Virus record (IMG/VR): IMGVR_UViG_3300009503_000018
Span: 75,528-139,527 of that record
From: a virus
Length of the DNA stretch: 64,000 nt
Direction: 5' to 3' (one strand)
The notes beneath the pieces are model-generated. The model saw nothing but the letters and a program-made list of their open reading frames with translations. It ran no database searches and was not told the DNA's origin. The translations under genes were made by a program, and so were the position numbers. Of the stretch, positions 1,703 to 18,677 are shown piece by piece (the stretch's first letter is position 1; each line of letters opens with the position of its first letter).

Positions 1703-1743
1703 GGTAACGTGACACCCCCAGTCAACAACTGGAACTTTTCATG

Positions 1744-2130
1744 TTAATTTCCAAATATGATACGTACAAGAATCGGCGCAGCGACTGGAACATTCGCGTC
1801 AACGGAATTAGACCAAGCAGAGACCGTCGCCGCATCGGCAGTGTCAGCACGGAGCCAAAACCGAGTCGATCCTACGCCCGTTACATTGACAAGAGTTGTG
1901 AATTCCTGACCACACGCAAATCCAGTTGGAAGAGCCACGGTAACAACCGTAGCTTTTGCATCTGGTTGAGTTCCAGCATTGGCCACAGGTTCATAAGCTA
2001 ACTCATATTGCGTAATTGCGCCACAATCACTGTCTTGACGAAAGACAACTTGAGCAGGACCGCTTGCTAGACACGAACAACTCAGAGCAAAAACAATGGG
2101 CAAAACATTACGAATCAGTTTAATAATCAC
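1744..2130 (-). CDS. Secreted beta-sandwich (Fn3-like) protein
   Basis: Hydrophobic N-terminal signal; ITQYELAY and WSNSV segments resemble fibronectin type III strands. Confidence 0.6.
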   Translation of the reverse strand: MIIKLIRNVLPIVFALSCSCLASGPAQVVFRQDSDCGAITQYELAYEPVANAGTQPDAKATVVTVALPTGFACGQEFTTLVNVTGVGSTRFWLRADTADAATVSAWSNSVDANVPVAAPILVRIIFGN

Positions 2131-5935: not shown

Positions 5936-7969
5936 TTAATGTTCTCCTGAAAGGTCATATTCTTCGATATGGGTAACATGATTTTGTTTCACGGCTCGAA
6001 TTTCTTTATCGAATCTCCCGCTATCGCGAACACTTCGATGGTTCGTAATAACAAGAACGGTCCTACCATCGCCGGTAAGATGTTCGAGAAGTTTGCACAT
6101 TTGTTCTTCGCCCCAAGTATCCAAATTCGCAAATGGCTCATCCAGTAGCAACAAATTTACATTCGCATCTGCTTGTTCCATTGACAGATCTCCGAAAGCT
6201 CCAGTAATGGCCAAACTCAATGCGGCTTTTTCACCTCCTGAATAAAACCGTATCGGGACGTGTTTTTTATTTCCGTCTTTGACCAAAATGTCAAGTTCGG
6301 TTTTTACTCCTTTGCCATCTGCTTTTGGAACTTCTGTAACCAATTCTGCGTGAACTTCTCCATCCGTCAGGATAGACAAATATTTAGCTAGTGAATTATT
6401 AAACGCGTCGCGACTCGAATGAATTTTGAACGATTTAAAACCTTTATCTCCAATAAGTTCTTCGCATCGCTCAATATACTTAATGCTTTTTTCATTTTTC
6501 TCATTAATAGTAATTTGGTGCTGTAATTGCTTGTTAAGTTTTTCATATTGAGACCGGGAATTTTCGGCGGTTTCAATCTGTGTTTTCAACTGTGTATACG
6601 CTTGTGTAAGATGGAGTTGCTCAGCCAAGAGATCTTTCTTTTCCTCCTCAATTTTTTCCGGAATATGAACACCGGTCCCGATACACTCTTTTAGAGTTTT
6701 GAGTTGTTCTACTACCTTTTGTAGGTCGTTGCTTGCTGTTTGTAGAAGGGCGTGATTTGCCGTCATGTCAGCTTCATACGCCCGCATATCTCGTAATACT
6801 CCCTGTGTACTTTTCTGTGTAGAAAGCATTTGTTGGAGCGCGTCTTTTAGAGCGTCTCTCTTTTTCGTCAACTCTTTAATGGTCCGTGTATATTTCGTAT
6901 GCAAACTTTGGCGCAACTCATCAGAAACCGCTTGTTCACACTCCGCACATTCCCCTTTCAAAGATTCCACATGTTGTAGCCGCATCTCCGCCTGCCGTAC
7001 TTCCGCGTTTGCCATTGCATGTTTATTTTGGAGATCGCAGACTTGTGCATTAATCGCCTCAACTTCTGCTTCAAGCTGTGCCGACGTTTTAAATGTCGAA
7101 AACCGAAAACTAAAATCTTCTGCCTTTTGGCTGCACGTTTTCGCTAATTGCTGAACGCGATCTTTTAATAGACGCTCTTTAGTTTGTAGTTCTGCAATAA
7201 GTCGAAGTTTCTTTGCCTCTTCTTCCAACGAGGCAAGTTCGTCTGCAATAACACGCAGTCGTGCTTGTTGTTCTTGGAGTTCCCGCGACCATTGAGCAAT
7301 TTCTTCGGGTGCGACCAGTGTTTTTGCCATCGCGGCAACTTGCGCTTGAAGTGTTGTTACAACCCCTTGCCCTTTCAGCAATTCTTGACGCAGGGATTTT
7401 CTCCACTCGCTCGCCACTTTGATATATTTGTCGCACTCGTCGAGATTCAAGATATTTCCAAAAATAGCTTTCCGCTCTTTGTCAGTACGTGTAATAAAAT
7501 CAGCTATTTTCGATTGTGGAATATACGCTTGATTGACGAATTGGTCATATGTCATTCGAATATGATCCCGAATGATTTTTTTGGTATCCGTATTTCGAGC
7601 GCCTTTTTCTGGTTGCCAGTTTTGGCCGTCCCACCGATACAACGTCCAATGCGTGCCTTCCTTCGGATGCTGCCGTGCATAAACAACATAATACGGCACA
7701 CCAGCATCGTCAATAAACGAAACTGCTATGCGACATCCCTGGTCACGTCGAACCGTATTAATGACGGTATCGTGAGTTGAACCGTCGTCGTTTTCTTCAA
7801 ATAAAGCAGTCGTAATGGCTTTAAAAATAGAACTTTTTCCCGCCCCAGACGAAATACCACGATCACGATTTTCGCCGGTGACGAGATATAACTTCCCGGG
7901 CTCAAAATCGAGGACTTGTTTGTCCCCATAAGACCGAAACCCCTCAATTTCGACCGAACGAATGATCAT
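5936..7969 (-). CDS. sbcC: SbcC/Rad50/gp46-like SMC-family ATPase subunit of a recombination nuclease
   Basis: Walker A GAGKSS, Q-loop, long coiled coil with CAEC zinc hook, signature YSGGEK, Walker B LLLLDEPF, H-loop ITNH. Confidence 0.92.
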   Translation of the reverse strand: MIIRSVEIEGFRSYGDKQVLDFEPGKLYLVTGENRDRGISSGAGKSSIFKAITTALFEENDDGSTHDTVINTVRRDQGCRIAVSFIDDAGVPYYVVYARQHPKEGTHWTLYRWDGQNWQPEKGARNTDTKKIIRDHIRMTYDQFVNQAYIPQSKIADFITRTDKERKAIFGNILNLDECDKYIKVASEWRKSLRQELLKGQGVVTTLQAQVAAMAKTLVAPEEIAQWSRELQEQQARLRVIADELASLEEEAKKLRLIAELQTKERLLKDRVQQLAKTCSQKAEDFSFRFSTFKTSAQLEAEVEAINAQVCDLQNKHAMANAEVRQAEMRLQHVESLKGECAECEQAVSDELRQSLHTKYTRTIKELTKKRDALKDALQQMLSTQKSTQGVLRDMRAYEADMTANHALLQTASNDLQKVVEQLKTLKECIGTGVHIPEKIEEEKKDLLAEQLHLTQAYTQLKTQIETAENSRSQYEKLNKQLQHQITINEKNEKSIKYIERCEELIGDKGFKSFKIHSSRDAFNNSLAKYLSILTDGEVHAELVTEVPKADGKGVKTELDILVKDGNKKHVPIRFYSGGEKAALSLAITGAFGDLSMEQADANVNLLLLDEPFANLDTWGEEQMCKLLEHLTGDGRTVLVITNHRSVRDSGRFDKEIRAVKQNHVTHIEEYDLSGEH

Positions 7970-7977
7970 TGCTTGGT
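7966..7977. repeat. 12-nt direct repeat TCATTGCTTGGT, downstream junction of the tnpB cassette
   Basis: Identical to 9166-9177, exactly 1200 bp away; contains the sbcC ATG on the minus strand. Confidence 0.9.
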
Positions 7978-8100
7978 GACGACATCCTCAGTCAATGACA
8001 AGGACTTCTCAGGTTAACCTGAAGGCTCCGTCCAAGCCGAAGGATATTTATCGCTGCATTCACATCTCTGTCAAGTAGTAAACTACACGAACACGAGTGT
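7976..8100 (-). ncRNA. Predicted omegaRNA (reRNA) scaffold copy 1, overlapping the tnpB 3' end; guide predicted as CAAGCAATGATCATTCGTTC (7975-7956)
   Basis: Known TnpB omegaRNAs overlap the CDS 3' end and run to the right end. Hairpins TCAGG-TTAA-CCTGA and TCCT...AGGA are present. The 5' boundary is unknown and is set here by homology to copy 2. Confidence 0.75.
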
Positions 8101-9113
8101 ATTCGTTCTGACAATGTTTTTTGTCGAACCAATCCACATTGTGAACAGGTACTTGACGTGCCACGAGGTGGGACCTTGACGAATCGGCGTCCAGCCTCTT
8201 CCGCTTTGACACCAAGAATGTCGAGGAATCGTGACCATGCAGCATCTGTTATAGATTTAGATTTATTGAGCCCGCTCGTTGACTTGTGTGTCATTTCACG
8301 CACATCTAAATCCTCAACGACGATCATTGCATTCTCAGAAACAATTCGATGGGCAAGTTTATGCTGAAAATCATTTCGTTGATTTGTTATTTTCGCATAT
8401 AACCTGGCGAGGTATGCTTTCGCCTTTTCTCGACGCTTCGAGCCTCGATTCTTTCGACTAAGCGCTCGCTGAGCTGCGCTCAGCCGCTCTTCAGTTTTTC
8501 GATACCATCGTGGATTCTCGATTTTTTCACCGGTAGACAACGTGGCAAAACTCTCTAAACCCATATCAATACCAATTTCTGCGGTTGCTTCAGGGTATGG
8601 TTTGGCAGGAACATCAGCGCAGGAAAATATCGCATACCATTTTCCTGCTCGACGCTTGAGGGTGAGCATCTTTGGTTTTCCAGTAATTGGTCGGTGAAAC
8701 CGAATCCGAACACACCCAATACCACCAAGACGGATTTTCTTCGGGCTAATCAAACGAAAGCCAATATCCTGAGGCCATGTCAGGCTATTATAACGATCTC
8801 GTCCTTTGAACCTTGGATAACCAGGCTTTTCGCCATTTTTTACACGCCCGAAGAATTGTTGAAATGCAAAATCGACACGGTAAATTACCTGTTGAAGAAC
8901 CTGCGCATAAATATTCGCGAATTCAGGTCGTTCTTGTTTGACAACGGGAAGTTCTTTTGATTGTTCAAAAAAGCCAATACGCACACCATGTTTCCAGGCT
9001 TCGCGCTCTTTGATCGCCGCATTGTACAATTCACGGCAATATCCAAGCCACAGGTCTAATTGTTGTGCTTGTACCTTGGTTGGATATATGCGATATTTAA
9101 ATGCTCTATGCAT
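7992..9113 (-). CDS. tnpB: TnpB RNA-guided endonuclease (373 aa from MHRAFKY), RuvC triad intact
   Basis: AFKYRIYPT N-terminus, RFKG, RuvC-I IGIDMG, RuvC-II IVVEDL, Zn finger CSQCG...HSCSC, RuvC-III DRDVNAAINI. Confidence 0.95.
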   Translation of the reverse strand: MHRAFKYRIYPTKVQAQQLDLWLGYCRELYNAAIKEREAWKHGVRIGFFEQSKELPVVKQERPEFANIYAQVLQQVIYRVDFAFQQFFGRVKNGEKPGYPRFKGRDRYNSLTWPQDIGFRLISPKKIRLGGIGCVRIRFHRPITGKPKMLTLKRRAGKWYAIFSCADVPAKPYPEATAEIGIDMGLESFATLSTGEKIENPRWYRKTEERLSAAQRALSRKNRGSKRREKAKAYLARLYAKITNQRNDFQHKLAHRIVSENAMIVVEDLDVREMTHKSTSGLNKSKSITDAAWSRFLDILGVKAEEAGRRFVKVPPRGTSSTCSQCGLVRQKTLSERIHSCSCSLLLDRDVNAAINILRLGRSLQVNLRSPCH

Positions 9114-9165
9114 TAATAGACATATTAGGCTACGTACTTTATAGTAGCGGCGGAGGGACTCGAAC

Positions 9166-9177
9166 TCATTGCTTGGT
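9166..9177. repeat. 12-nt direct repeat TCATTGCTTGGT, upstream junction of the tnpB cassette
   Basis: Identical to 7966-7977; contains the TGA stop of the 82-aa gene. Confidence 0.9.
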
Positions 9178-9414
9178 ATGCATTTCAAAAGCGAATGCTA
9201 CTGTATACCCTTCAACTCGTTGTTCGTCAAGTACTGAATTTAACAGTTCTTTCGTCGGACATACAACGACTCGTCTTTTCTCTATACCTTCTTTCTGAAG
9301 GACCGCGACATATGAAACAGCGTTATGCTGTATAGATTTATGCACCGATAAAAGAAGATCTGCAAACTCATCAACGGAAACTGGTTTTTCTATTTCTATA
9401 TGTTTTCTATTCAT
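9166..9414 (-). CDS. Small hypothetical protein between sbcD and sbcC
   Basis: 82 aa; ATGA overlap with sbcD. Confidence 0.75.
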   Translation of the reverse strand: MNRKHIEIEKPVSVDEFADLLLSVHKSIQHNAVSYVAVLQKEGIEKRRVVVCPTKELLNSVLDEQRVEGYTVAFAFEMHTKQ

Positions 9415-10487
9415 ATTGTATCAATCCGTCGTTCAATTTCTTTTAAATACTCCAGCAATTCCGGGTCATTATCGACTTGCTGCACGTAAGAAAGTAATTG
9501 CTTTCCAATTGGAATTCTTTTGTTGATTTTTGCATTGACATTTAAGGGAGTTGTCGCTTTCGCCTGCATACGGACCTTTGCCGAAGCCGCCCCCATCGCC
9601 CGCAGGCGTTTCTCTAGTTCTCGTCGAACAGACACAGGAGCTTGACCATTATGTTCTACAACCATAAATACAACATTGCCCACAACGTTTTTCTCAATTT
9701 GGAGCATTTCTTCTATATCACCAGCCCAAGTTTTCACAACATTAATGATTTTAGGAAAAGGCGATTCAACAAATTCAACTGCAATCGACGATTCAACGTC
9801 GACAATAAGAGCCCCTTTCGCACCTTGATCGCCGTCTTGGACGCGCTCTAATGGCGTTCCAATATGCCAGGCAGGGACATTTTCAAATTTGAGTTCTTGA
9901 CGTAAGTGAATATGCCCTCCCAGCACGTAGGATAATTCAGAACGGTCAATGGTTTCTCGGACAATTCCTGTTGTGGCGGCATATTTTCCATCTCGTGAAT
10001 GTCCGATGACGGAATCATGGAAAAACAGAACATTAATATCGTGCGGACTTAAGTCATACTCGAACTGTGTGTAACCATAGGGCAAAAAGTGCAATAACAG
10101 CCCATTAAAGTCTAGGACACCGGGCTTGTCAAACACAACAATTTTATCGTCGTCATTCCATATTTGTACGCCGTTATAACTGTGCCATTGTCCTGTCTTG
10201 TCATACAAATCGTGGTTGCCAAGAAGACACGCAATACGAACATTGTCGCGGCGAAATCGGTTGAGCCGCTCGTCCGCTAAGTCCCGCATCCATGCTGGTG
10301 GTCTGTGAGGTTTAAAGCGGTCTCCACCAAAAATTACTGCGTCGGCCTTTTTTTGTAAAGCAAGTTCTCGAACCCAGTCCCACACATTCAGCGTATCAAG
10401 CAACCGGCTGTTAAAACCGGTTTTCTGGTCAATATGACCTTCGCTATATTCGCCGATGTGACCATCGCTAAACACGACGAGTTTCAT
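9411..10487 (-). CDS. sbcD: SbcD/Mre11/gp47-like metallophosphoesterase nuclease subunit
   Basis: Motifs SDGHIG, GGDRF, LGNHD and GGHIH. Confidence 0.92.
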   Translation of the reverse strand: MKLVVFSDGHIGEYSEGHIDQKTGFNSRLLDTLNVWDWVRELALQKKADAVIFGGDRFKPHRPPAWMRDLADERLNRFRRDNVRIACLLGNHDLYDKTGQWHSYNGVQIWNDDDKIVVFDKPGVLDFNGLLLHFLPYGYTQFEYDLSPHDINVLFFHDSVIGHSRDGKYAATTGIVRETIDRSELSYVLGGHIHLRQELKFENVPAWHIGTPLERVQDGDQGAKGALIVDVESSIAVEFVESPFPKIINVVKTWAGDIEEMLQIEKNVVGNVVFMVVEHNGQAPVSVRRELEKRLRAMGAASAKVRMQAKATTPLNVNAKINKRIPIGKQLLSYVQQVDNDPELLEYLKEIERRIDTI

Positions 10488-11509
10488 AAGGTTTCTCGAA
10501 TATGAGGCAACCCTTCATTATATGCCGCTGGTGTAATTTCAATAAATTCTGCTTTTTGTTGTAATTCTTGAATGTTTTTTGCTCCACAATACGTCAAACC
10601 AGACCGCAAACCGCCAATCAGATCTCGTACAACATTCTCTACTGGACCTTTACACGGGACTTTGATAGAAATCCCCTCCGCTGTTTTCCACTCTGGTACA
10701 TCACCATAGTAGTCACGATGCGCCTCAACAGAGGCCATGCCACGAAATATTTTATAGTTATTCGGGCCGTCCCAAATCTCTTCGCCGGGAGTTTCGTCTG
10801 TACCAGCCAACAAACCGCCAACCATAACCATAGTCGCTCCGGCAGCGAGCGCTTTTACTACATCTCCCGGGAAACGAATTCCTCCGTCCGCTATTACTGG
10901 ACGACCGGTCCTACTGCAATCCATAATCGCTGTAATTTGTGGAACACCAAACCCGGTTTTTAGGCGTGTTGTACATACTGACCCTGGACCGATACCAACC
11001 TTGATTGCATCGGCACCACAACTAGCCAAATAATCAGCGCCGGCGGCCGTGGCGACATTTCCAGCGATAATATAAATATTCTTTTTAAACTTTTCCCGTA
11101 ACGCTTTAATCATTTTGCCGGTCAATCGTGAATGACCGTGGGCTACATCAACGCAAAATAGCGTTGCACCAGCATTATACAATGCTTCAGCGCGATCCAA
11201 TCCTTCATTAACACCTACCGAGACTCCTACGATGGGATATTTATTGTCTTGTGATTGTGTTGCCTTTTTATATTCATTGACATTTTCTTCAATTGAAATA
11301 AAACGATGCAATATCCCTAGACACCCCAATTCCCACATCTTTCTTGCCATTACTGCTCCACAAATTGTATCCATATTTGCTGCAATAATAGGCACTTTAA
11401 ATAAATACGGACCTAATGACGCTTCGGTAGAGACCGCCGACCGAGAAGAGAAATGATTATAATTGGGCTGTAACAACAGATCATCAAAAGTTAATCCACG
11501 ACGGATCAT
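10484..11509 (-). CDS. IMPDH/GMP reductase family oxidoreductase without CBS domains
   Basis: [41 protein letters not shown] (catalytic Cys), IADGGI, FRGMAS, AEG. Start MIRRG at 11509 forms an ATGA overlap. Confidence 0.9.
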
Positions 11510-11853
11510 TTCTCTCTCTCCCAAGGATAAACAACATATTGATCTATTTCTCGCACCCAATATGTCGGCACAAACGGACAATGTTTGTGCTTGTGGAGTG
11601 TAGCGATATCGTATTTATCTATAAAAGGAGATAGAGTTTTTCCACTATCTGCAATATCGTCCACGACGAGACTGTGTTCTTCGGGCTCATCAAACTTGAG
11701 AGGGAGGTCAAGCAAATGCGATAACGTAACACCAAGGGGCAGACCGCCCCGTGGGAGACTGAAAATGGATGAATACTTTTTTCCTTTTTTACGGATTTGC
11801 GCTACGAGTTGAGACACGTCCGTGTCGAAATCTGCCCACGAATACACAATCAT
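11506..11853 (-). CDS. Type I phosphoribosyltransferase (Gpt/xanthine-guanine-like)
   Basis: SLPRGGLPLG, PRPP-binding LVVDDIADSGKT, C-terminal YVVYPWE. Confidence 0.85.
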   Translation of the reverse strand: MIVYSWADFDTDVSQLVAQIRKKGKKYSSIFSLPRGGLPLGVTLSHLLDLPLKFDEPEEHSLVVDDIADSGKTLSPFIDKYDIATLHKHKHCPFVPTYWVREIDQYVVYPWEREK

Positions 11854-12869
11854 GAATTGTTTTTTTGGATAGCAATGTTTTCTTGAATTTTCTTTAACAT
11901 TTCAGGATGTTCCACGAGAAAAGCTCGGGCATTGTCAGCGCCCTGTCCAATACGCTCTCCCTCAAAGGAATACCACGCCCCTGTTTTTTCGATGACACCT
12001 GTATCGACGCCGTAATTGAGCCAGCATTTGACAACATCAAACCCCTCCCCATAGATCAAATCGAATTCCGCTTCGCGAAATGGGGGAGCGACTTTATTCT
12101 TTACGACTTTGACTTTCATTGTATGACCAATAACTTCTTCACCATTTTTCAGTGTTGTGCTCTTTCGCACGTCGAGGCGCACCGAAGCATAAAACTTTAG
12201 GGCATTTCCTCCAGTTGTTGTTTCAGGATTTCCAAACATTACTCCGATTTTCTGGCGCAATTGATTAATAAAAATAATCGAGGATCGGTGCTTATTCAAG
12301 TTACTGGTGATCTTGCGCATCGCTTGCGACATGAGGCGAGCTTGCAAGCCCATATGCGCACTCCCCATTTCTCCCTCGATTTCTGCTTTCGGGACGAGAG
12401 CTGCTACCGAATCTACCACGATCAAGTCCACGCCGGCTTCAATAGCAAAATCAGCCATTTCTAGCGCTTGTTCCCCACTATCTGGCTGAGATACTAGTCC
12501 TTTCGACAAATCGAGTCCCAACCGCTGAGCATACTGCAAATCCAAAGCATGTTCTGCATCAATGTAATGAACTATTCCGCCTAATGATTGGGCTCGGGCA
12601 GCAACCTGAATTGCTAATGTCGATTTCCCCGTTGCCTCGGGACCGTAAATTTCGACCATTCGTCCGCGCGGGATACCGCCTACGCCCAATGCGTTATCAA
12701 GAGGTGGAATGCCGGTCGGAATAACTTCAACACTAGGAAGTTCTTGCTGCCCGCCCAACACAAAAGCGGACTCAGCGCCGAATTTCTTCGTAAAACCCGA
12801 AAGATAATTCTCGATGTCTTTTGATGGACTTGGTGAAGCAAACATTTTCTTTTCCTTTGGCGGAACCAC
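11850..12869 (-). CDS. recA: RecA recombinase, bacterial type
   Basis: GGIPRGRMVEIYGPEATGKST, IDAEHALD, VDSVAALVPKAEIEGEMG, FINQLRQKIGVMFGNPETTTGGNALKFYASVRLDVR. Confidence 0.97.
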   Translation of the reverse strand: MVPPKEKKMFASPSPSKDIENYLSGFTKKFGAESAFVLGGQQELPSVEVIPTGIPPLDNALGVGGIPRGRMVEIYGPEATGKSTLAIQVAARAQSLGGIVHYIDAEHALDLQYAQRLGLDLSKGLVSQPDSGEQALEMADFAIEAGVDLIVVDSVAALVPKAEIEGEMGSAHMGLQARLMSQAMRKITSNLNKHRSSIIFINQLRQKIGVMFGNPETTTGGNALKFYASVRLDVRKSTTLKNGEEVIGHTMKVKVVKNKVAPPFREAEFDLIYGEGFDVVKCWLNYGVDTGVIEKTGAWYSFEGERIGQGADNARAFLVEHPEMLKKIQENIAIQKNNS

Positions 12870-12870
12870 G

Positions 12871-14040
12871 TTACCTCCACGTCACTTTAGGGCGTCTTGG
12901 TGCCGAAACCGGCATCGGCGACGGTTCAGAAGACGGCTCAGGAGTTGAAGTCACTGATTCAGGGACTCGCGGCGAAGGAACAACCGGTTTTGGACTAAGC
13001 TCGACTGGGCTTACAGGACGAGGAACGGAGTTATTAGGAGCCACTTCCGCGCTGGGCTCGACGGGCTTTGAAAAAGCTACCGATGCCGGAGCCACGGGAC
13101 GCGGCGGCGTCATAAACTTTTTTGTCCGTACTGGTGTACCCGAACCAAAACTTTGAACATACGCTTGTTTTTGCTCAGGAGTCCAAACCTGAACCCACTG
13201 CGCCGGATCGGGAATATCTTCCGCCGCTTGAAGATACGCCACTACCTCTCCGGGAAGATTCGGGATTTCATCTTCAATTTCAATAAAGTATTCGCAAAAC
13301 TGGGAACCCCGCGTATTATCGCGCGTTACATTCACGACACGATACCCACCAGACTCAAAGTCCCAGAATTTCTTTAGTTTCTGTTTGCGGTACAACTGAC
13401 CGATGATTGAGTCCGGACCAAAATACCCCTGAATTCGGACATGACCGCCGTCCTCTTCTTCGAGGGGCTTTTGACCTAAAGCCTTCGCGACATCGAAAAC
13501 GGCAAAGTAATATCTGTCGACGGGTCCCCAAGCCTTGGCAAGGTCACGAACAGCGCTTACCTCGGGATGCTGCGCGATAACGGTAAAAAATTCGTCCTTT
13601 GCAATATTTTCGAGACCTGCCGCTTTCCGCTTTTCAGTGTACTCATCCCAAAACAACTGAGCGTGCCGGCAAAATACACATTCGTCAGTGTCGAACACCG
13701 GCGGGACCGGCTGACCAGCGCGCGATAAAGATTTCGCTTGCTTGTTCATCTGCGTTTCACAAGCAACCATAACCCGACGGAAATTACTATCATCGGCGGG
13801 AGCTAGTTCAACCCAGTGAACAGCCAACTTGGCGTAATAATTGACCATATCAGGCCAATGCCGGAAAAATGTGAAGCGGTTCAAATTAAAAGCGAGAAAA
13901 AACAGTCTATTCTCCGCAGCTTTCCGTTCTTCGCTTGGGAGCATACGGAACAAGTTCGGATCACGCTTAAAATTCTTTCGTGAACCCTCTTCTCCCGGAC
14001 TCTCCACGTCTACCTCTTGCGGATAATTCAACTCAACCAT
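12871..14040 (-). CDS. Probable ssDNA-binding protein (gp32-like) with Pro-rich C-tail
   Basis: Directly upstream of recA; CVFC, RYYFAVFD and VVNVTRDNTRG...Y segments resemble gp32-like SSBs. Confidence 0.55.
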   Translation of the reverse strand: MVELNYPQEVDVESPGEEGSRKNFKRDPNLFRMLPSEERKAAENRLFFLAFNLNRFTFFRHWPDMVNYYAKLAVHWVELAPADDSNFRRVMVACETQMNKQAKSLSRAGQPVPPVFDTDECVFCRHAQLFWDEYTEKRKAAGLENIAKDEFFTVIAQHPEVSAVRDLAKAWGPVDRYYFAVFDVAKALGQKPLEEEDGGHVRIQGYFGPDSIIGQLYRKQKLKKFWDFESGGYRVVNVTRDNTRGSQFCEYFIEIEDEIPNLPGEVVAYLQAAEDIPDPAQWVQVWTPEQKQAYVQSFGSGTPVRTKKFMTPPRPVAPASVAFSKPVEPSAEVAPNNSVPRPVSPVELSPKPVVPSPRVPESVTSTPEPSSEPSPMPVSAPRRPKVTWR

Positions 14041-14068
14041 GTTACCTCCGTTAAAAATAACGACTCAA

Positions 14069-14077
14069 AGTATACCA
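14069..14077 (-). promoter_or_regulatory. Extended -10 promoter (TG-G-TATACT) upstream of the SSB-recA operon
   Basis: Intergenic TGGTATACT followed by a GGAGG SD. A TTGACA at 14106-14101 is 26 nt away, too far to be the -35. Confidence 0.45.
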
Positions 14078-14114
14078 TCCATACACCACACGGGAATACT
14101 TGTCAAGAGCATAA

Positions 14115-14348
14115 TTAATCCATTGGAACTAAAGGTGCTGTTAGTACTTTTGGTTCGTCCCACCACTGGATATGTCCCAATGTTTCCCAACATTTAATAA
14201 AATTTACAGCCGCATTCCAATTTGGAAAATTATAGCGCTGAATAACTGGGCTGGCGAATACGGCCCGTGAATGTTCGACATACGTCAGTTCAACAGAACC
14301 GTCGTCTTGTTCTATCAGTTGAATGCCTTTTCCAAAGCCACGTGACAT
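14115..14348 (-). CDS. Small hypothetical protein
   Basis: 77-aa ORF on the coding strand. Confidence 0.65.
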   Translation of the reverse strand: MSRGFGKGIQLIEQDDGSVELTYVEHSRAVFASPVIQRYNFPNWNAAVNFIKCWETLGHIQWWDEPKVLTAPLVPMD

Positions 14349-14361
14349 GTAAATGCCCTTC

Positions 14362-14970
14362 TCAATTGATATTCGACTGCAACGTCGCTCTTCGATCAGC
14401 GGCGAGAGTCCTGATACTCCAAATTTTATTGTTAAATGCGGCGGAAATCGCTTTTAATTGTCGTGTTTTATGCTGTAAGGATAACAGGTGTGTCTGGGCA
14501 TCCTCGTATGAAGGAGCATAAATATACATCTCTTCTTTGAATTCCTCTGCGCTTTTCGGGGTTAATCCAATACCGGACACTTCTGCAACATACCCTTTAT
14601 ACGCAATCTCAGCATATTCATCTTGATTCGCGTTTTTAGAGAAAATTAACACCGCCGCATTTTCTTTTGCAGCTACTGTCGGATTTTTTTCTCCACTCCC
14701 TTTGAGATAATACTTAGCGTACTTCTCTATATGGGCCATGTACTGCGCATAATCAATTTTTTCGAACCGATCTTTTGCCAATTCCGCGTCGATTGCCAAT
14801 TGGGACCAGAAATGTTCCTGAGCTGAACACTCCCTGACTTCACGTTCTAAATCGCTTTCGTCTACCACGAGCATCTCAGAAATGATGAATTCTTCATTTC
14901 CGTGCTCATCAGACACGACGACACGGAAATCTTGAGTCGTTTGGCCGTGGATAATAACGTTAATCGACAT
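14362..14970 (-). CDS. Helical protein, possibly a UvsY-like recombination mediator
   Basis: C-terminal LKAISAAFNNKIWSIRTLAADRRA resembles UvsY-like proteins; near SSB and recA. Start MSINV is assumed; the ORF track starts at 15039. Confidence 0.45.
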   Translation of the reverse strand: MSINVIIHGQTTQDFRVVVSDEHGNEEFIISEMLVVDESDLEREVRECSAQEHFWSQLAIDAELAKDRFEKIDYAQYMAHIEKYAKYYLKGSGEKNPTVAAKENAAVLIFSKNANQDEYAEIAYKGYVAEVSGIGLTPKSAEEFKEEMYIYAPSYEDAQTHLLSLQHKTRQLKAISAAFNNKIWSIRTLAADRRATLQSNIN

Positions 14971-15076
14971 TGTTCGACGACGTTGGACACCCCCAGTCGA
15001 TGGTGGGAGCTTCTCCGCAATCTGGAGAGCCCCCACCATTTAACCACAACACCGGATGATGCGCCATTAGTCAGGT

Positions 15077-15289
15077 TTAACCAACGGCTACCCGATCAGC
15101 CACTTCGGTCTTGACCATCGAGAAAATATAAGTGGCCAAAAGACGAAGCCGATCGCTCTGACTCTTGGTCTGAGTCAGACCCCGAACGCCCAGCTCTTCG
15201 AGATCGCGAAGGAGAGCACGGGTTCTCTGTCGCGCACGGGGATGTAGTGCGACACCTTCGACTGTGCTTGGGACTAGCTTATTAGCCAT
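15077..15289 (-). CDS. Small hypothetical protein (MANKLVPST...)
   Basis: AGGAGG SD 6 nt before the ATG at 15289. Confidence 0.7.
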   Translation of the reverse strand: MANKLVPSTVEGVALHPRARQRTRALLRDLEELGVRGLTQTKSQSDRLRLLATYIFSMVKTEVADRVAVG

Positions 15290-15313
15290 TTCGGACCTCC
15301 TTTTTGAAATTTC

Positions 15314-15373
15314 GTGACGGCACCCCAACAGGGCTTCTCGGGATAACCCCGACGGCTCCGTCCGAGCCTAAGC
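15314..15373 (-). ncRNA. Diverged omegaRNA/right-end scaffold copy 3
   Basis: CTTAGGCTCGGACGGAGCCGTCGGGGTTATCCCGAGAAGCCCTGTTGGGGTGCCGTCAC aligns with copy 1 (GGCTTGGACGGAGCC...GAGAAGTCC...GTCGTCAC). The stem TCAGG/CCTGA becomes TCGGG/CCCGA. Confidence 0.7.
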
Positions 15374-15381
15374 TTAATACC

Positions 15382-15506
15382 GTGACGACATCCTCAGTCA
15401 ATGACAAGGACTTCTCAGGTTAACCTGAAGGCTCCGTCCAAGCCTGAGTATATTTATCGCTGCATTCACATCTCTGTCAAGTAGTAGACCACACAAACAC
15501 GAGTGT
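15382..15506 (-). ncRNA. Orphan omegaRNA scaffold copy 2 (tnpB 3' remnant)
   Basis: 119/125 nt identical to 7976-8100 by hand count. It encodes only the last ~36 TnpB codons and has no upstream tnpB body. Confidence 0.8.
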
Positions 15507-15541
15507 AATCCACCGCCGCTTTTGATCAATCATTCTGCCAC

Positions 15542-15724
15542 TTAACCCAATTCATTATTTACGGGAACAATCCGCCAATTCAAACTAGGCATTCTCTCTC
15601 GTACATCGTCTAAGCACACTAAGATCTCCTCTAAGCTATGAGGCTCACCAAAGGGTCTCCATTCACTATACTGCTCATCTTTTAGACTCCATTCAAGAAT
15701 CCACTTATCTAGTATACTGCTCAT
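15542..15724 (-). CDS. Small hypothetical protein whose 5' end is triplicated
   Basis: 60 aa; DKWILEWSLKDEQ is encoded by the repeat at 15667-15709. Confidence 0.55.
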   Translation of the reverse strand: MSSILDKWILEWSLKDEQYSEWRPFGEPHSLEEILVCLDDVRERMPSLNWRIVPVNNELG

Positions 15725-15755
15725 CTTTTAGACTCCGTTCAAGAATTCATTTATC
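15667..15755. repeat. Tandem 43-nt direct repeat (period 46), with a third copy at 16077-16118
   Basis: TATACTGCTCATCTTTTAGACTCCATTCAAGAATCCACTTATC at 15667-15709; variant at 15713-15755; diverged copy at 16077-16118. Confidence 0.85.
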
Positions 15756-15788
15756 CATCTGTGCGACCGACGAACGCGCTTTCCGTTA

Positions 15789-16058
15789 TCAACGATGTAG
15801 ACCATACAAACGCTTCTCTGAGTAGTGAATGTGACACAGCCACAGATAGCCGCCCGGTGTTGGCATGCCACACGTCCCGTCGCTGCGACAACCCGCCATG
15901 TCGCATACCGGCACGAACTGCGTCACCGCCTTACACTTTGGACACCCTTCGACGATATCGTTCAAATTAAACGGGTTTGGCGCCTTGAGAATTTTGGCCG
16001 TAGGCAATAGCGTGTCACACGCCCGACAACGACTATGGCGCGGTGTCTGCATTTTCAC
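15789..16058 (-). CDS. Cys-rich small protein (multiple Zn sites)
   Basis: CRAC, CPKC, CDMAGC, C...CHIH; GAGGTG SD. Confidence 0.7.
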   Translation of the reverse strand: MKMQTPRHSRCRACDTLLPTAKILKAPNPFNLNDIVEGCPKCKAVTQFVPVCDMAGCRSDGTCGMPTPGGYLWLCHIHYSEKRLYGLHR

Positions 16059-16076
16059 ACCTCGCGCGGATCAATG

Positions 16077-16118
16077 CTGCTCATTTTTTAGACCCCATTC
16101 AAAAATCCACTTATCCAT
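16077..16118. repeat. Third, diverged copy of the 43-nt repeat
   Basis: CTGCTCATTTTTTAGACCCCATTCAAAAATCCACTTATCCAT; the minus strand reads MDKWIFEWGLKNEQH-stop. Confidence 0.75.
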
Positions 16119-16152
16119 TTTTGCGACGACCTCTTAGTCAATTAAGGACTTC

Positions 16153-17409
16153 TTACGCTTGAACTGTAACGCTTTCGCCCCACGGCGCTGGGGAATGCTC
16201 TTTTGTGAATGCCCACAGCACTGGATAGTCCGGAGCTGTCTTAGGAAACGTCCCGTATCCATCTGTGAAATAAACGAGCAGATTAGGACACAGACCGAGT
16301 TCGGCGATCTTATCGAACGCCGGACGAAAATCAGTCCCACCGCCCCCCTTGAACTTCACAGCATTGAAAACTTCATCGAATTTGTCGATTTCGGCGATTT
16401 CGTGAACCTTGGCATCGGCTGTCATGACGATAGTGCGGTCTGCAAGCATAACGACATCTCGAATTTCTGAAGCAAACTCGTTTAGAATATCCGCAGAAAT
16501 AGACCCTGATGTATCAACTACGAGAACAAGAAGCGCCGCCTCTTTTTTGGCCAAACCAGGGAGGAATGTCCGACCCCCCGCAACGCAACCAGTTAGGATT
16601 GAGCGGACTCCGCCGTGGTAATCGACCTTCTCAAAGATGTTCAATGCCTGTCCACGAATGAACTTTCGCCAGTCTACTTTTGGATCGCGTAGATGCTGGA
16701 CCAAGCGCTCTACGCCGAGAGGCATTTGCCCACGCTTTTTTGCCTGGTCGGCTGCACGGATAATACGATCCGCGAGAGCGGCTTCGTCGAGATTGGGATT
16801 GGAAAAATGTGCATCCCACGAACCCATATCGCCTGCTTCTTGTTGGCAATAAGGGCAATCGGGATCGGCATCGCCCTGACCCTGGTCCGAACCTGCTTTA
16901 TCCGCACCTGAACCTGAACCCGACTTTCCTTTGTTCTCATCGAGGAGTTTTTTGTAGATTTCCTCAGCCGCGAGCCCACTAAACTCTCTTCGATACAGCG
17001 TCCACTCCGGCAACTGCATGGACAGATCCTCAATGAGGATTGCATTGACAGCATAGTCACATGCGCAGTTCCACAGCTTATGGCTCTGGTGATTTTGCCG
17101 CCTCTGGATATGCCGGAGTGCGAGATGCATTACTTCATGACATAGCACAGCTCGACGAACAGGCTTCTCCAAGGCCAAAACAAAAGCAGGATTGTAAAAG
17201 AGGTGTACTCCATCAACACCCATCGTGGGAAAGTCCCACGTCGGGATTCGACGCAGACCACACAGAAGCTGCCCAAAGAACGGCTGATTGGTTAGAAGCT
17301 GAATCGTGGCGATAGAAAGAGCGTCTTCCGCCTTTTCAATCATCTTCGGCTTTTCCGCGTCGGGCGGGATGTGTGGATGCAAAGCCTTGTGTCGAGTATT
17401 TTTATCCAT
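16153..17409 (-). CDS. VWA-domain protein with N-terminal HExxH metallopeptidase-like domain (DUF2201 type)
   Basis: TMGVDG, HEVMHLALRHIQRR, WNCACDYAVN; C-terminal VVDTSGSI and GGGGTDF MIDAS motifs. Confidence 0.9.
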   Translation of the reverse strand: MDKNTRHKALHPHIPPDAEKPKMIEKAEDALSIATIQLLTNQPFFGQLLCGLRRIPTWDFPTMGVDGVHLFYNPAFVLALEKPVRRAVLCHEVMHLALRHIQRRQNHQSHKLWNCACDYAVNAILIEDLSMQLPEWTLYRREFSGLAAEEIYKKLLDENKGKSGSGSGADKAGSDQGQGDADPDCPYCQQEAGDMGSWDAHFSNPNLDEAALADRIIRAADQAKKRGQMPLGVERLVQHLRDPKVDWRKFIRGQALNIFEKVDYHGGVRSILTGCVAGGRTFLPGLAKKEAALLVLVVDTSGSISADILNEFASEIRDVVMLADRTIVMTADAKVHEIAEIDKFDEVFNAVKFKGGGGTDFRPAFDKIAELGLCPNLLVYFTDGYGTFPKTAPDYPVLWAFTKEHSPAPWGESVTVQA

Positions 17410-18677
17410 TACTTCTCCACAACCGCAGTAGCCAACCGAGACATCAACTCCGTAAATTCTACTTTAGCATGCTTTCGGAAAAAGTCAACTAGGCGAATTT
17501 CCGAAGCCAAATTCATATCTTGCAACGTCTTGACCTTAAGTTCGATCTGACCGAGTGTGCCCAAGAACTTAAAGATGTTCTGTGCTTGATGCGGATGCAC
17601 AATCTTCGCAGCATGCACTTTTACCCAATGCGCGACTGCGCACGAATACGCATACTTCTGGCTTACATCCTCGGTGTCGTATTGAGGCATCTTCCCTTCA
17701 TTAACGATTTCCTCCGGACACACCTTTTGGAACTGCGCAAGAAATGCCATAAACTCCGTAGTTGCTCCAGGTCCAATCAAGGGGAGAGCCAGCCGCCGGA
17801 AGTCCACATCGGACTGTGCATTAGTTTGGTCGAGAACTCGGGAATAAAATTCCCAACTTCGCGGATTCGGCTGCGCCTGTTCATCCTTCTTGAACTTTGT
17901 TGGCATGAGCGTATCGGGATACGTAGAAATCGCGCCAATAATCTCGGGACGAATCGCGTTCTCTCGCGCCCAAGCCAAAAAATCTTCGGCGTCAGTAACA
18001 ATTTCAATATGCGCAACCCGATTGTTTAGGGCGGATGAAATCCGATGGACGAATGTCCCATCACCCGCCTGATTTCCGGCGAGAACAATCATGCACCGCT
18101 TCGATAGTGCGTGAGAATGCACACGCCGGTCATACACAAGCTGCAATGCCGCGTTCTGCACCGCTTCGCATGCATTGCTAAATTCGTCGAGGAACAAGAT
18201 GGAATACACGTCATCATCCGTATTCAAATACTCCGGCTTAAACCACTGAGTAGTCTTAGACTTAGGATCAGCAAAGGGCAACCCTTTGACCTCAACTGGA
18301 TCAAACAAGGCAAGGCGCACATCGTCTACACGGATATGCGCGGGAGCTGGTCCGCGCGTCACAACCGGCTTTCCATTCTCATGTGTCACTCTCGTAACGC
18401 CACGCACACACAAGGCACATCCGGTCGGAAGATGATGCTTGGGGCATCCCCGCACATGTTCTGTAGGATTAGACGACTGGGTCTTACATCCCCCGCACTT
18501 ATCGCCTGTAGCGAACTCTTCAGCTTTCTCGATCGCCATTTGATACACAATAGCGGACTTACCCACACCGGGCGGTCCATGCATAAATGGGGGGCAGGGC
18601 TGCGGAATGTTCAGAAACAACCGCAACAGAGCCTTTGCTTCGGAAATGCTGACCTTATCCACATCTCGGACACTCAT
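17409..18677 (-). CDS. MoxR-type AAA+ ATPase with a Cys/His-rich insertion
   Basis: GPPGVGKS, Walker B ILFLDEF, AGN, SALNNR and NPRSWE; paired with the VWA gene. Confidence 0.9.
   Translation of the reverse strand: MSVRDVDKVSISEAKALLRLFLNIPQPCPPFMHGPPGVGKSAIVYQMAIEKAEEFATGDKCGGCKTQSSNPTEHVRGCPKHHLPTGCALCVRGVTRVTHENGKPVVTRGPAPAHIRVDDVRLALFDPVEVKGLPFADPKSKTTQWFKPEYLNTDDDVYSILFLDEFSNACEAVQNAALQLVYDRRVHSHALSKRCMIVLAGNQAGDGTFVHRISSALNNRVAHIEIVTDAEDFLAWARENAIRPEIIGAISTYPDTLMPTKFKKDEQAQPNPRSWEFYSRVLDQTNAQSDVDFRRLALPLIGPGATTEFMAFLAQFQKVCPEEIVNEGKMPQYDTEDVSQKYAYSCAVAHWVKVHAAKIVHPHQAQNIFKFLGTLGQIELKVKTLQDMNLASEIRLVDFFRKHAKVEFTELMSRLATAVVEK

Follow-up and report, generated by a model that had tools for sequence, protein, structure and literature searches.

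Two Abutting omegaRNA Right Ends in a Phage Genome Are Best Read as Transposon Debris Rather Than an Early CRISPR-Like Array

Introduction

In ISDra2-type IS200/IS605 elements, the functional omegaRNA scaffold comprises 116 nt, dispensability being limited to what lies 5' of position -117, and bases -5 to -3 pair with bases -105 to -103 to form a pseudoknot (PMC10097598). Standalone omegaRNAs that act in trans have also been documented, and the serial duplication of omegaRNA segments has been discussed as an origin of CRISPR arrays (PMC10691335).

The phage locus described here carries two right ends of this kind (c2 and c3) head to tail, an arrangement that an earlier note on the same DNA had read as a proto-array whose first guide is the tail of another tnpB. 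The best reading of the present analysis is one of ordinary transposon debris; an early CRISPR-like array is not supported. The two right ends are quite likely what is left of two related tnpB elements, one of them probably nested in the other, since there is no Y1 transposase, no left end and only one intact TnpB, the remains are seen to decay among sibling phages, and the same layout recurs in a metagenome contig (L287).

Data and Searches

The window, i.e., the whole stretch of DNA that was analysed (64,000 nucleotides), makes up the final 64 kb of a 139.5-kb IMG/VR virus record, and all features of the locus, from the tnpB elements to the flank, the small gene and the weak tails, lie on its minus strand. 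The same DNA is present in hot-spring, sediment and rhizosphere metagenomes. Contigs from four sequencing runs were compared with positions 7000-17500, and sibling contigs with variant neighbour proteins were aligned; six sibling assemblies were available. Relatives of the right ends were sought in bacterial genomes and metagenomes with a degenerate pattern, 21 nt long, that describes the conserved hairpin; it matched 240 loci (Thermus/Meiothermus, Ktedonobacteria and other Chloroflexota, Bacillota, and others). A covariance model, R1, was built from 109 non-redundant bacterial and metagenomic right ends with the window sequence excluded.

Searching phage GenBank by blastn with the c1 locus (the intact tnpB cassette) and the c2/c3 locus returned no match, the Rfam gathering scan of the window returned no family, and no relatives were found in IMG/VR by way of the DUF2201 protein. 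ARAGORN predicted no tRNA in the window and three in the whole genome. Exact protein look-up gave no record of the 71-aa protein encoded next to c3 and, for the 82-aa neighbour of c1, records from the same lineage only. The summed contig depth rises 5- to 10-fold at window positions 11914-12615 in three runs, where many short, diverged contigs have their joints within a RecA-like gene; this rise is most likely cross-mapping of conserved recA from other organisms.

Results

The Intact tnpB Cassette

7976..9165, minus strand: c1, a 1.2-kb cassette with tnpB and a right end
7992-9113, minus strand: intact tnpB of c1 (Pfam OrfB_IS605, Cas12f1-like TNB and HTH)

The protein encoded by c1 is the sole intact TnpB in the record; it has the RuvC motifs and aligns end to end with the ISDra2 TnpB of the PDB (E 4e-45). 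The right end of the cassette stops in GTCAC at 7976 and, because the tnpB stop codon lies 16 nt from the element end, the scaffold is almost all coding sequence. No match to a Y1 transposase (PF01797) was found in the 139.5-kb record. There is also no left-end hairpin in c1, the left end being a tRNA-Leu fragment: the first 24 nt of the cassette (9142-9165) are identical to the 3' end of the phage tRNA-Leu(CAA) gene (C1:55120-55143). Identical 12-mers bracket the cassette as direct repeats (9166-9177 and 7966-7977), and in the phage contigs of X2 and X4, from which c1 is missing, exactly 1200 nt are skipped between these repeats.

The empty side of this 1200-nt presence/absence polymorphism joins the flanks exactly and restores an ATGA stop/start overlap; ATAC precedes the guide-matching sequence at the empty site and resembles the TTAC inferred beside the left end of the relative L083. 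In X4, a 3-kb contig covers the 5' two-thirds of tnpB as far as 9165, where it passes into DNA from outside 7000-17500. Because this contig leaves 9165 into other DNA, the cassette probably sits elsewhere in the X4 sibling, possibly beside the tRNA-Leu gene. With a left end made of 24 nt of tRNA-Leu, c1 itself moved by a non-canonical route, and c2 may have come by a similar one.

Two Abutting Right Ends

15382..15510, minus strand: c2, a 5'-truncated tnpB tail with a complete right end (129 nt)
15314..15381, minus strand: c3, a 68-nt right-end relic (omegaRNA 3' module) left by an IS200/IS605-family tnpB element
15369..15381, minus strand: c2/c3 junction, 13 nt from the end of c2 to P1 of c3, in four forms among sibling phages
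15354-15368, minus strand: P1 of c3
15338-15352, minus strand: P2 of c3
15334-15337, minus strand: GAAG of c3
15324-15333, minus strand: P3 of c3
15314-15322, minus strand: tail of c3, with GTCAC at its end

Over its length, c2 is 95% identical to the last 129 nt of c1, the last 63 nt being fully identical, and it is a sister of the intact element. Its tnpB remnant amounts to 43 codons and corresponds to a fragment of Pfam TNB (model positions 41-60 only). When positions 15511-15545 upstream of c2 are compared alone, they show no significant similarity to c1; in the sibling L332, part of this stretch continues the tnpB remnant.

The first base of c3 is the next base after the GTCAC end of c2 (15382-15386), and c3 itself ends in CCGTCAC. 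The earlier note was right that a shorter homolog follows c2 directly and again ends in GTCAC (15381 to 15314), that it keeps a conserved core and GAGAAG (the core being the 10 nt of P1), and that its terminal hairpin is shortened (P3 has 3 bp). Against c1, the Smith-Waterman score of c3 is 54, with 49 of 68 columns identical, compared with 15.2 +/- 2.7 and a maximum of 31 in 2000 dinucleotide shuffles (z 14.6), so that the similarity also withstood the shuffled controls that the note had proposed. Within the 139.5-kb genome, c3 is found by blastn with an E of 2.5e-5; under R1 it reaches 50.7 bits (E 3e-11), as compared with 56 bits for c1 and c2, and the next match in the window has an E of 1.1. 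The search of the rest of the genome with R1 added none, leaving c1, c2 and c3 as the only matches. In sequence and structure alike, c3 agrees with the right end, or omegaRNA 3' module, of IS200/IS605 tnpB elements, and it has the conserved TCAC cleavage site at the element end; it is regarded here as a true, short copy of an IS200/IS605-family tnpB right end.

In RNA folding, P1, P2 and P3 are all present in the predicted fold of c3, the stability of which is at the level of shuffled sequences (z -0.87). The reading IKLRLGRS can be recovered, as the frame translates as GIKLRLGRS, but its "IKL" part is unreliable and lies in the junction. Because positions 15369-15381 are polymorphic among sibling genomes, a tnpB origin of c3 can be taken as safe only for the part inside P1.

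In c1 and c2, a matching stretch approximately 100 nt upstream of the end closes the three-hairpin module in the minimum-free-energy fold. This partner is absent from c3, which has only 13 nt upstream of P1 and, by the ISDra2 standard, is not a full scaffold of about 116 nt with a pseudoknot partner. Because it is only 68 nt long and lacks that partner, c3 alone is probably unable to form a full, working omegaRNA scaffold. The scaffold of c2 is probably complete in the lineage of the window, and the TnpB of c1 might in principle load it.

The Right-End Family and the Place of c3

In the family as a whole, 97% of the cells in the helices are paired, a value that none of 500 shuffles attained; double changes occur in 204 cells as compared with 63 in shuffles, and slid controls collapse. 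The covariation check suggested earlier thus came out in favour of the structure. The sequence TCGTCAC forms the element end in 182 of 203 relatives, and homology between paired copies ends exactly there. Comparison of such copies in bacterial genomes reveals clean limits at the right end and fuzzy limits at the left, and no TAM could be assigned from them to the c1/c2 lineage.

The P2 pair reads TCAGG/CCTGA in c1 and c2 and TCGGG/CCCGA in c3. The A:U to G:C change that had been pointed out is therefore real as a difference, but it is not a local event because both states are common in the family (AU in 62 and GC in 43 of the 109 right ends). In addition to having the GC state of P2, c3 shares the GGCTC form of P1 with L083 and L024, and its short P2 and P3 are paralleled in the natural members L224, L241 and L206. 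Because of these features, c3 is assigned to a sub-lineage other than that of c1 and c2 and is not seen as a worn copy of c2, with which it shares 81% identity over 43 nt only and from which it differs in the P2 state, the P2 loop length, and the length and sequence of P3.

Decay among Sibling Phages

The extent of c2 varies among the sibling phages. L329/L331 have 236 contiguous nt of it, L332 has about 232 nt interrupted by internal deletions and a frameshift, and the window and L324-L327 have 129 nt; in L328/L330, its 5' part is longer, but a 77-nt deletion removes P1, P2 and P3. From the end of c2 to P1 of c3 there are 13 nt in the window; L328 has these 13 nt but for one substitution, L329/L331 have 5 nt, and L332 has 13 nt of another sequence. 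All four junction forms derive from a 24-nt perfect palindrome, CAC-GGTATTAA-GCTTA-ATACCGTG, which takes in the last three bases of c2, each form having lost one or both of the 8-nt blocks. The L332 form has one mismatch in 8 with the tnpB coding sequence of L287, whereas the next best of 236 has three; this match is only suggestive of the L332 junction being real tnpB coding sequence of another member. Canonical single-strand peel-and-paste insertion predicts no palindrome that includes the end of c2, and because of this the junction hints at a double-strand-break or fold-back repair step.

All five sibling types have kept c3, in which three different indels occur, all of them at the apex of P3. 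Its P3 stem stays at 3-4 bp despite these indels, and per base c3 has acquired indels at least as often as c2. The flanking phage genes differ among siblings by a few percent only. Both elements are without their 5' parts, and the remains are still eroding by small deletions that differ from sibling to sibling. Because c3 occurs in all five types with a P3 stem of 3-4 bp, weak selection on its structure is conceivable.

Guide Positions and Neighbouring Sequences

15293..15313, minus strand: 3' flank of c3 (nominal guide position), containing the AGGAGG ribosome-binding site of the next gene
15077..15292, minus strand: small gene downstream of c3; product of 70-71 aa without a Pfam family; found in all sibling contigs
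14982..15065, minus strand: c4, a weak, possible right-end tail relic (covariance model E 1.1; 21/30 against the c1 tail)
1709..1752, minus strand: c5, a weak, possible tail relic (22/30 matches, reached by 1 of 100 shuffles)

The guide position after c3 does cover a Shine-Dalgarno sequence, as had been noticed, its 20 nt containing the AGGAGG of the gene at 15292. The ribosome-binding site lies in the flank because the element sat in the 20-nt gap before this gene, and the position of c3 simply reflects insertion into a short intergenic gap. For the 20 nt after c2 and after c3, no target-like second site with up to 3 mismatches was found in the genome, no exact 20-mer match in IMG/VR, and no match with up to 3 mismatches inside a tnpB among 320 loci. 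No terminator-like T run is present on the gene strand, and no left end is recognisable upstream of c2 or c3.

Both c4, which lies in the next intergenic gap after the c3 locus, and c5, whose GTCAC end is 6 nt before a start codon, resemble a terminal hairpin plus tail; they share an exact 13-mer, and both are directly upstream of start codons. Elsewhere in the small-gene region, a 43-nt repeat occurs three times (15667-15755 and 16073-16115), and each copy ends in the start of a small ORF (ATGAGCAG). The outer copies are joined in L332, with the 89-aa gene between them missing, and run X4 is without one 47-nt unit; therefore, the 43-nt repeats drive deletions in this region.

Discussion

Origin of the Locus

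The history of the locus, in which both the order of events and the mechanism of nesting are inferred, might be as follows. An old IS200/IS605-family tnpB-type element would once have lain just upstream of the gene that starts at 15292, and c3 would be its last 55-68 nt. By the simplest route, a second element of the c1 lineage would have landed in the 3' end of the older tnpB, and its right end would thereby have come to abut the tail of the older element. The common ancestor of the sampled phages would then have lost everything 5' of approximately 236 nt, and the erosion of the remains would have continued differently in each lineage. No TAM is demonstrable for the presumed insertion, since the upstream side has been deleted.

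The same layout, two truncated tnpB tails with their right ends, is found in the metagenome contig L287; no further case occurs among 204 examined right ends that are followed by at least 150 nt of sequence. In this 1.2-kb contig (L287:339-700, minus strand), two 5'-truncated tnpB tails with complete right ends lie 136 nt apart, and the first right end lies directly against the part of the second tnpB that encodes the zinc finger. Of the two inferences drawn in the earlier note, insertion of one element within an older one fits best, given that c3 belongs to another sub-lineage and that L287 has the same layout. The other, a guide directed against a competing tnpB lineage, found no backing: the "guide" exists in four forms among sibling phages and has no match in the genome, in IMG/VR or among the 320 loci, and its likeness to a tnpB is the automatic result of insertion into one. 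The idea of a proto-array fared no better, with c3 too short, the hairpins of c2 lost in one sibling lineage, and units of 129 and 68 nt, and the recommended search for guide targets in the genome, IMG/VR and the 320 loci yielded no plausible other site.

Other Explanations

It is distinctly unlikely that the relics persist because the phage reuses stable hairpins as cis-acting RNA before the 70-aa gene. Such a use would agree with the retention of c3 by every one of the five sibling types, its P3 remaining a stem of 3-4 bp in spite of three indels, and with the location of the possible tails c4 and c5 directly upstream of start codons and on the same strand. However, the fold of c3 is no more stable than those of shuffles, the gene strand has no terminator-like T run, and c3 does not acquire fewer indels per base than c2. 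The orientation of this transposon family is known to be biased, and placement on the same strand is expected from this bias.

A restricted function is very unlikely as well, namely that in the lineage of the window only, the TnpB of c1 loads c2 from an operon transcript, with the RNA reading through the junction into c3. If this were true, a single nuclease would act both at its own sbcC-junction site and at the c2/c3 junction, and it would cut and convert co-infecting siblings whose junction has another form or whose c3-type element is uninterrupted. The locus would then be a natural homing system with one nuclease and several guides, caught before array formation.

Highly improbable is a two-guide mini-array, in which an operon transcript would be cut into two omegaRNAs (c2 and c3, each with its 3' flank) that the TnpB of c1 loads in trans and directs at phage competitors or at a rival lineage of tnpB. 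On the same strand and 6 kb away, an intact TnpB with RuvC motifs is encoded, c2 equals c1 over the last 63 nt and, at 129 nt, exceeds the 116-nt scaffold of ISDra2, and there is precedent for standalone omegaRNAs acting in trans (PMC10691335). However, c3 has only 68 nt and no upstream pairing partner, the three hairpins of c2 are deleted in the sibling L328, the X2 and X4 siblings are without the c1 cassette, the c2 "guide" exists in four sequences, and neither guide has a target in the genome, IMG/VR or the 320 loci. Moreover, instead of equal units and spacer-sized intervals, the locus has units of 129 and 68 nt, and the arrangement is not conserved, as the c2 hairpins missing from L328 and the four junction forms indicate. 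Finally, that c3 arose by duplication of the c2 right end in place and then diverged, along the lines of serial duplication of omegaRNA segments, is hardly credible: although c2 and c3 follow each other head to tail and nothing unrelated lies between them, they are 81% identical over 43 nt only and differ in the P2 state, the P2 loop and P3, whereas the flanking phage genes of siblings differ by a few percent, and the features of c3 match other natural sub-lineages.

Implications

If c2 and c3 are read as debris of two tnpB elements, the locus illustrates how easily transposon decay yields head-to-tail omegaRNA scaffolds that resemble early CRISPR arrays. With six sibling assemblies, this decay can be read step by step, which makes for an unusually clear population record. 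It also provides a practical test for array candidates, i.e., whether the units, the junction and the nuclease are conserved together; here, they are not. In addition, the instability of the palindromic junction and the origin of the c1 left end from a tRNA gene suggest that tnpB cassettes move in this phage through recombination or the repair of breaks rather than through TnpA, which is of modest interest with respect to how TnpB spreads in viruses.

Comparison with Known Systems

The locus belongs to a known scaffold family; nonetheless, c3 is not a full scaffold, and the locus is neither a mobilised standalone element nor an array. As in ISDra2-type IS200/IS605 elements, whose TnpB can be aligned with that of c1 from end to end, the parts of the right end follow each other in the order of conserved hairpin, variable hairpin, terminal hairpin and TCAC tail, and the guide position starts at the first base outside the element. 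The phage locus differs in that it has neither TnpA nor a left end with a hairpin by a TAM, and thus is not an autonomous element of this family, in the length of c3 (68 nt vs. the 116-nt scaffold of ISDra2), and in the nearly all-coding scaffold of c1, with the tnpB stop 16 nt from the end.

Standalone or PATE-like omegaRNAs likewise have a scaffold with no adjacent nuclease gene and a compatible TnpB elsewhere in the genome. However, they possess both ends and occur as several mobilised copies, whereas the phage relics, including the c3 type, are single-copy and without a left end, and c3 lacks about half of the scaffold. Type V CRISPR arrays, like the locus, repeat scaffold-like units head to tail, with a different sequence after each. 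In contrast to such arrays, the phage units are unequal, stem from different lineages and are not separated by a spacer-sized interval; adaptation genes are absent, and the layout is not conserved among siblings. The nested or tandem relics of L287 also have a truncated tnpB tail with its right end directly upstream of another, whereas in the phage the right-end modules are only 5-13 nt apart and the junction between them is a decaying palindrome.
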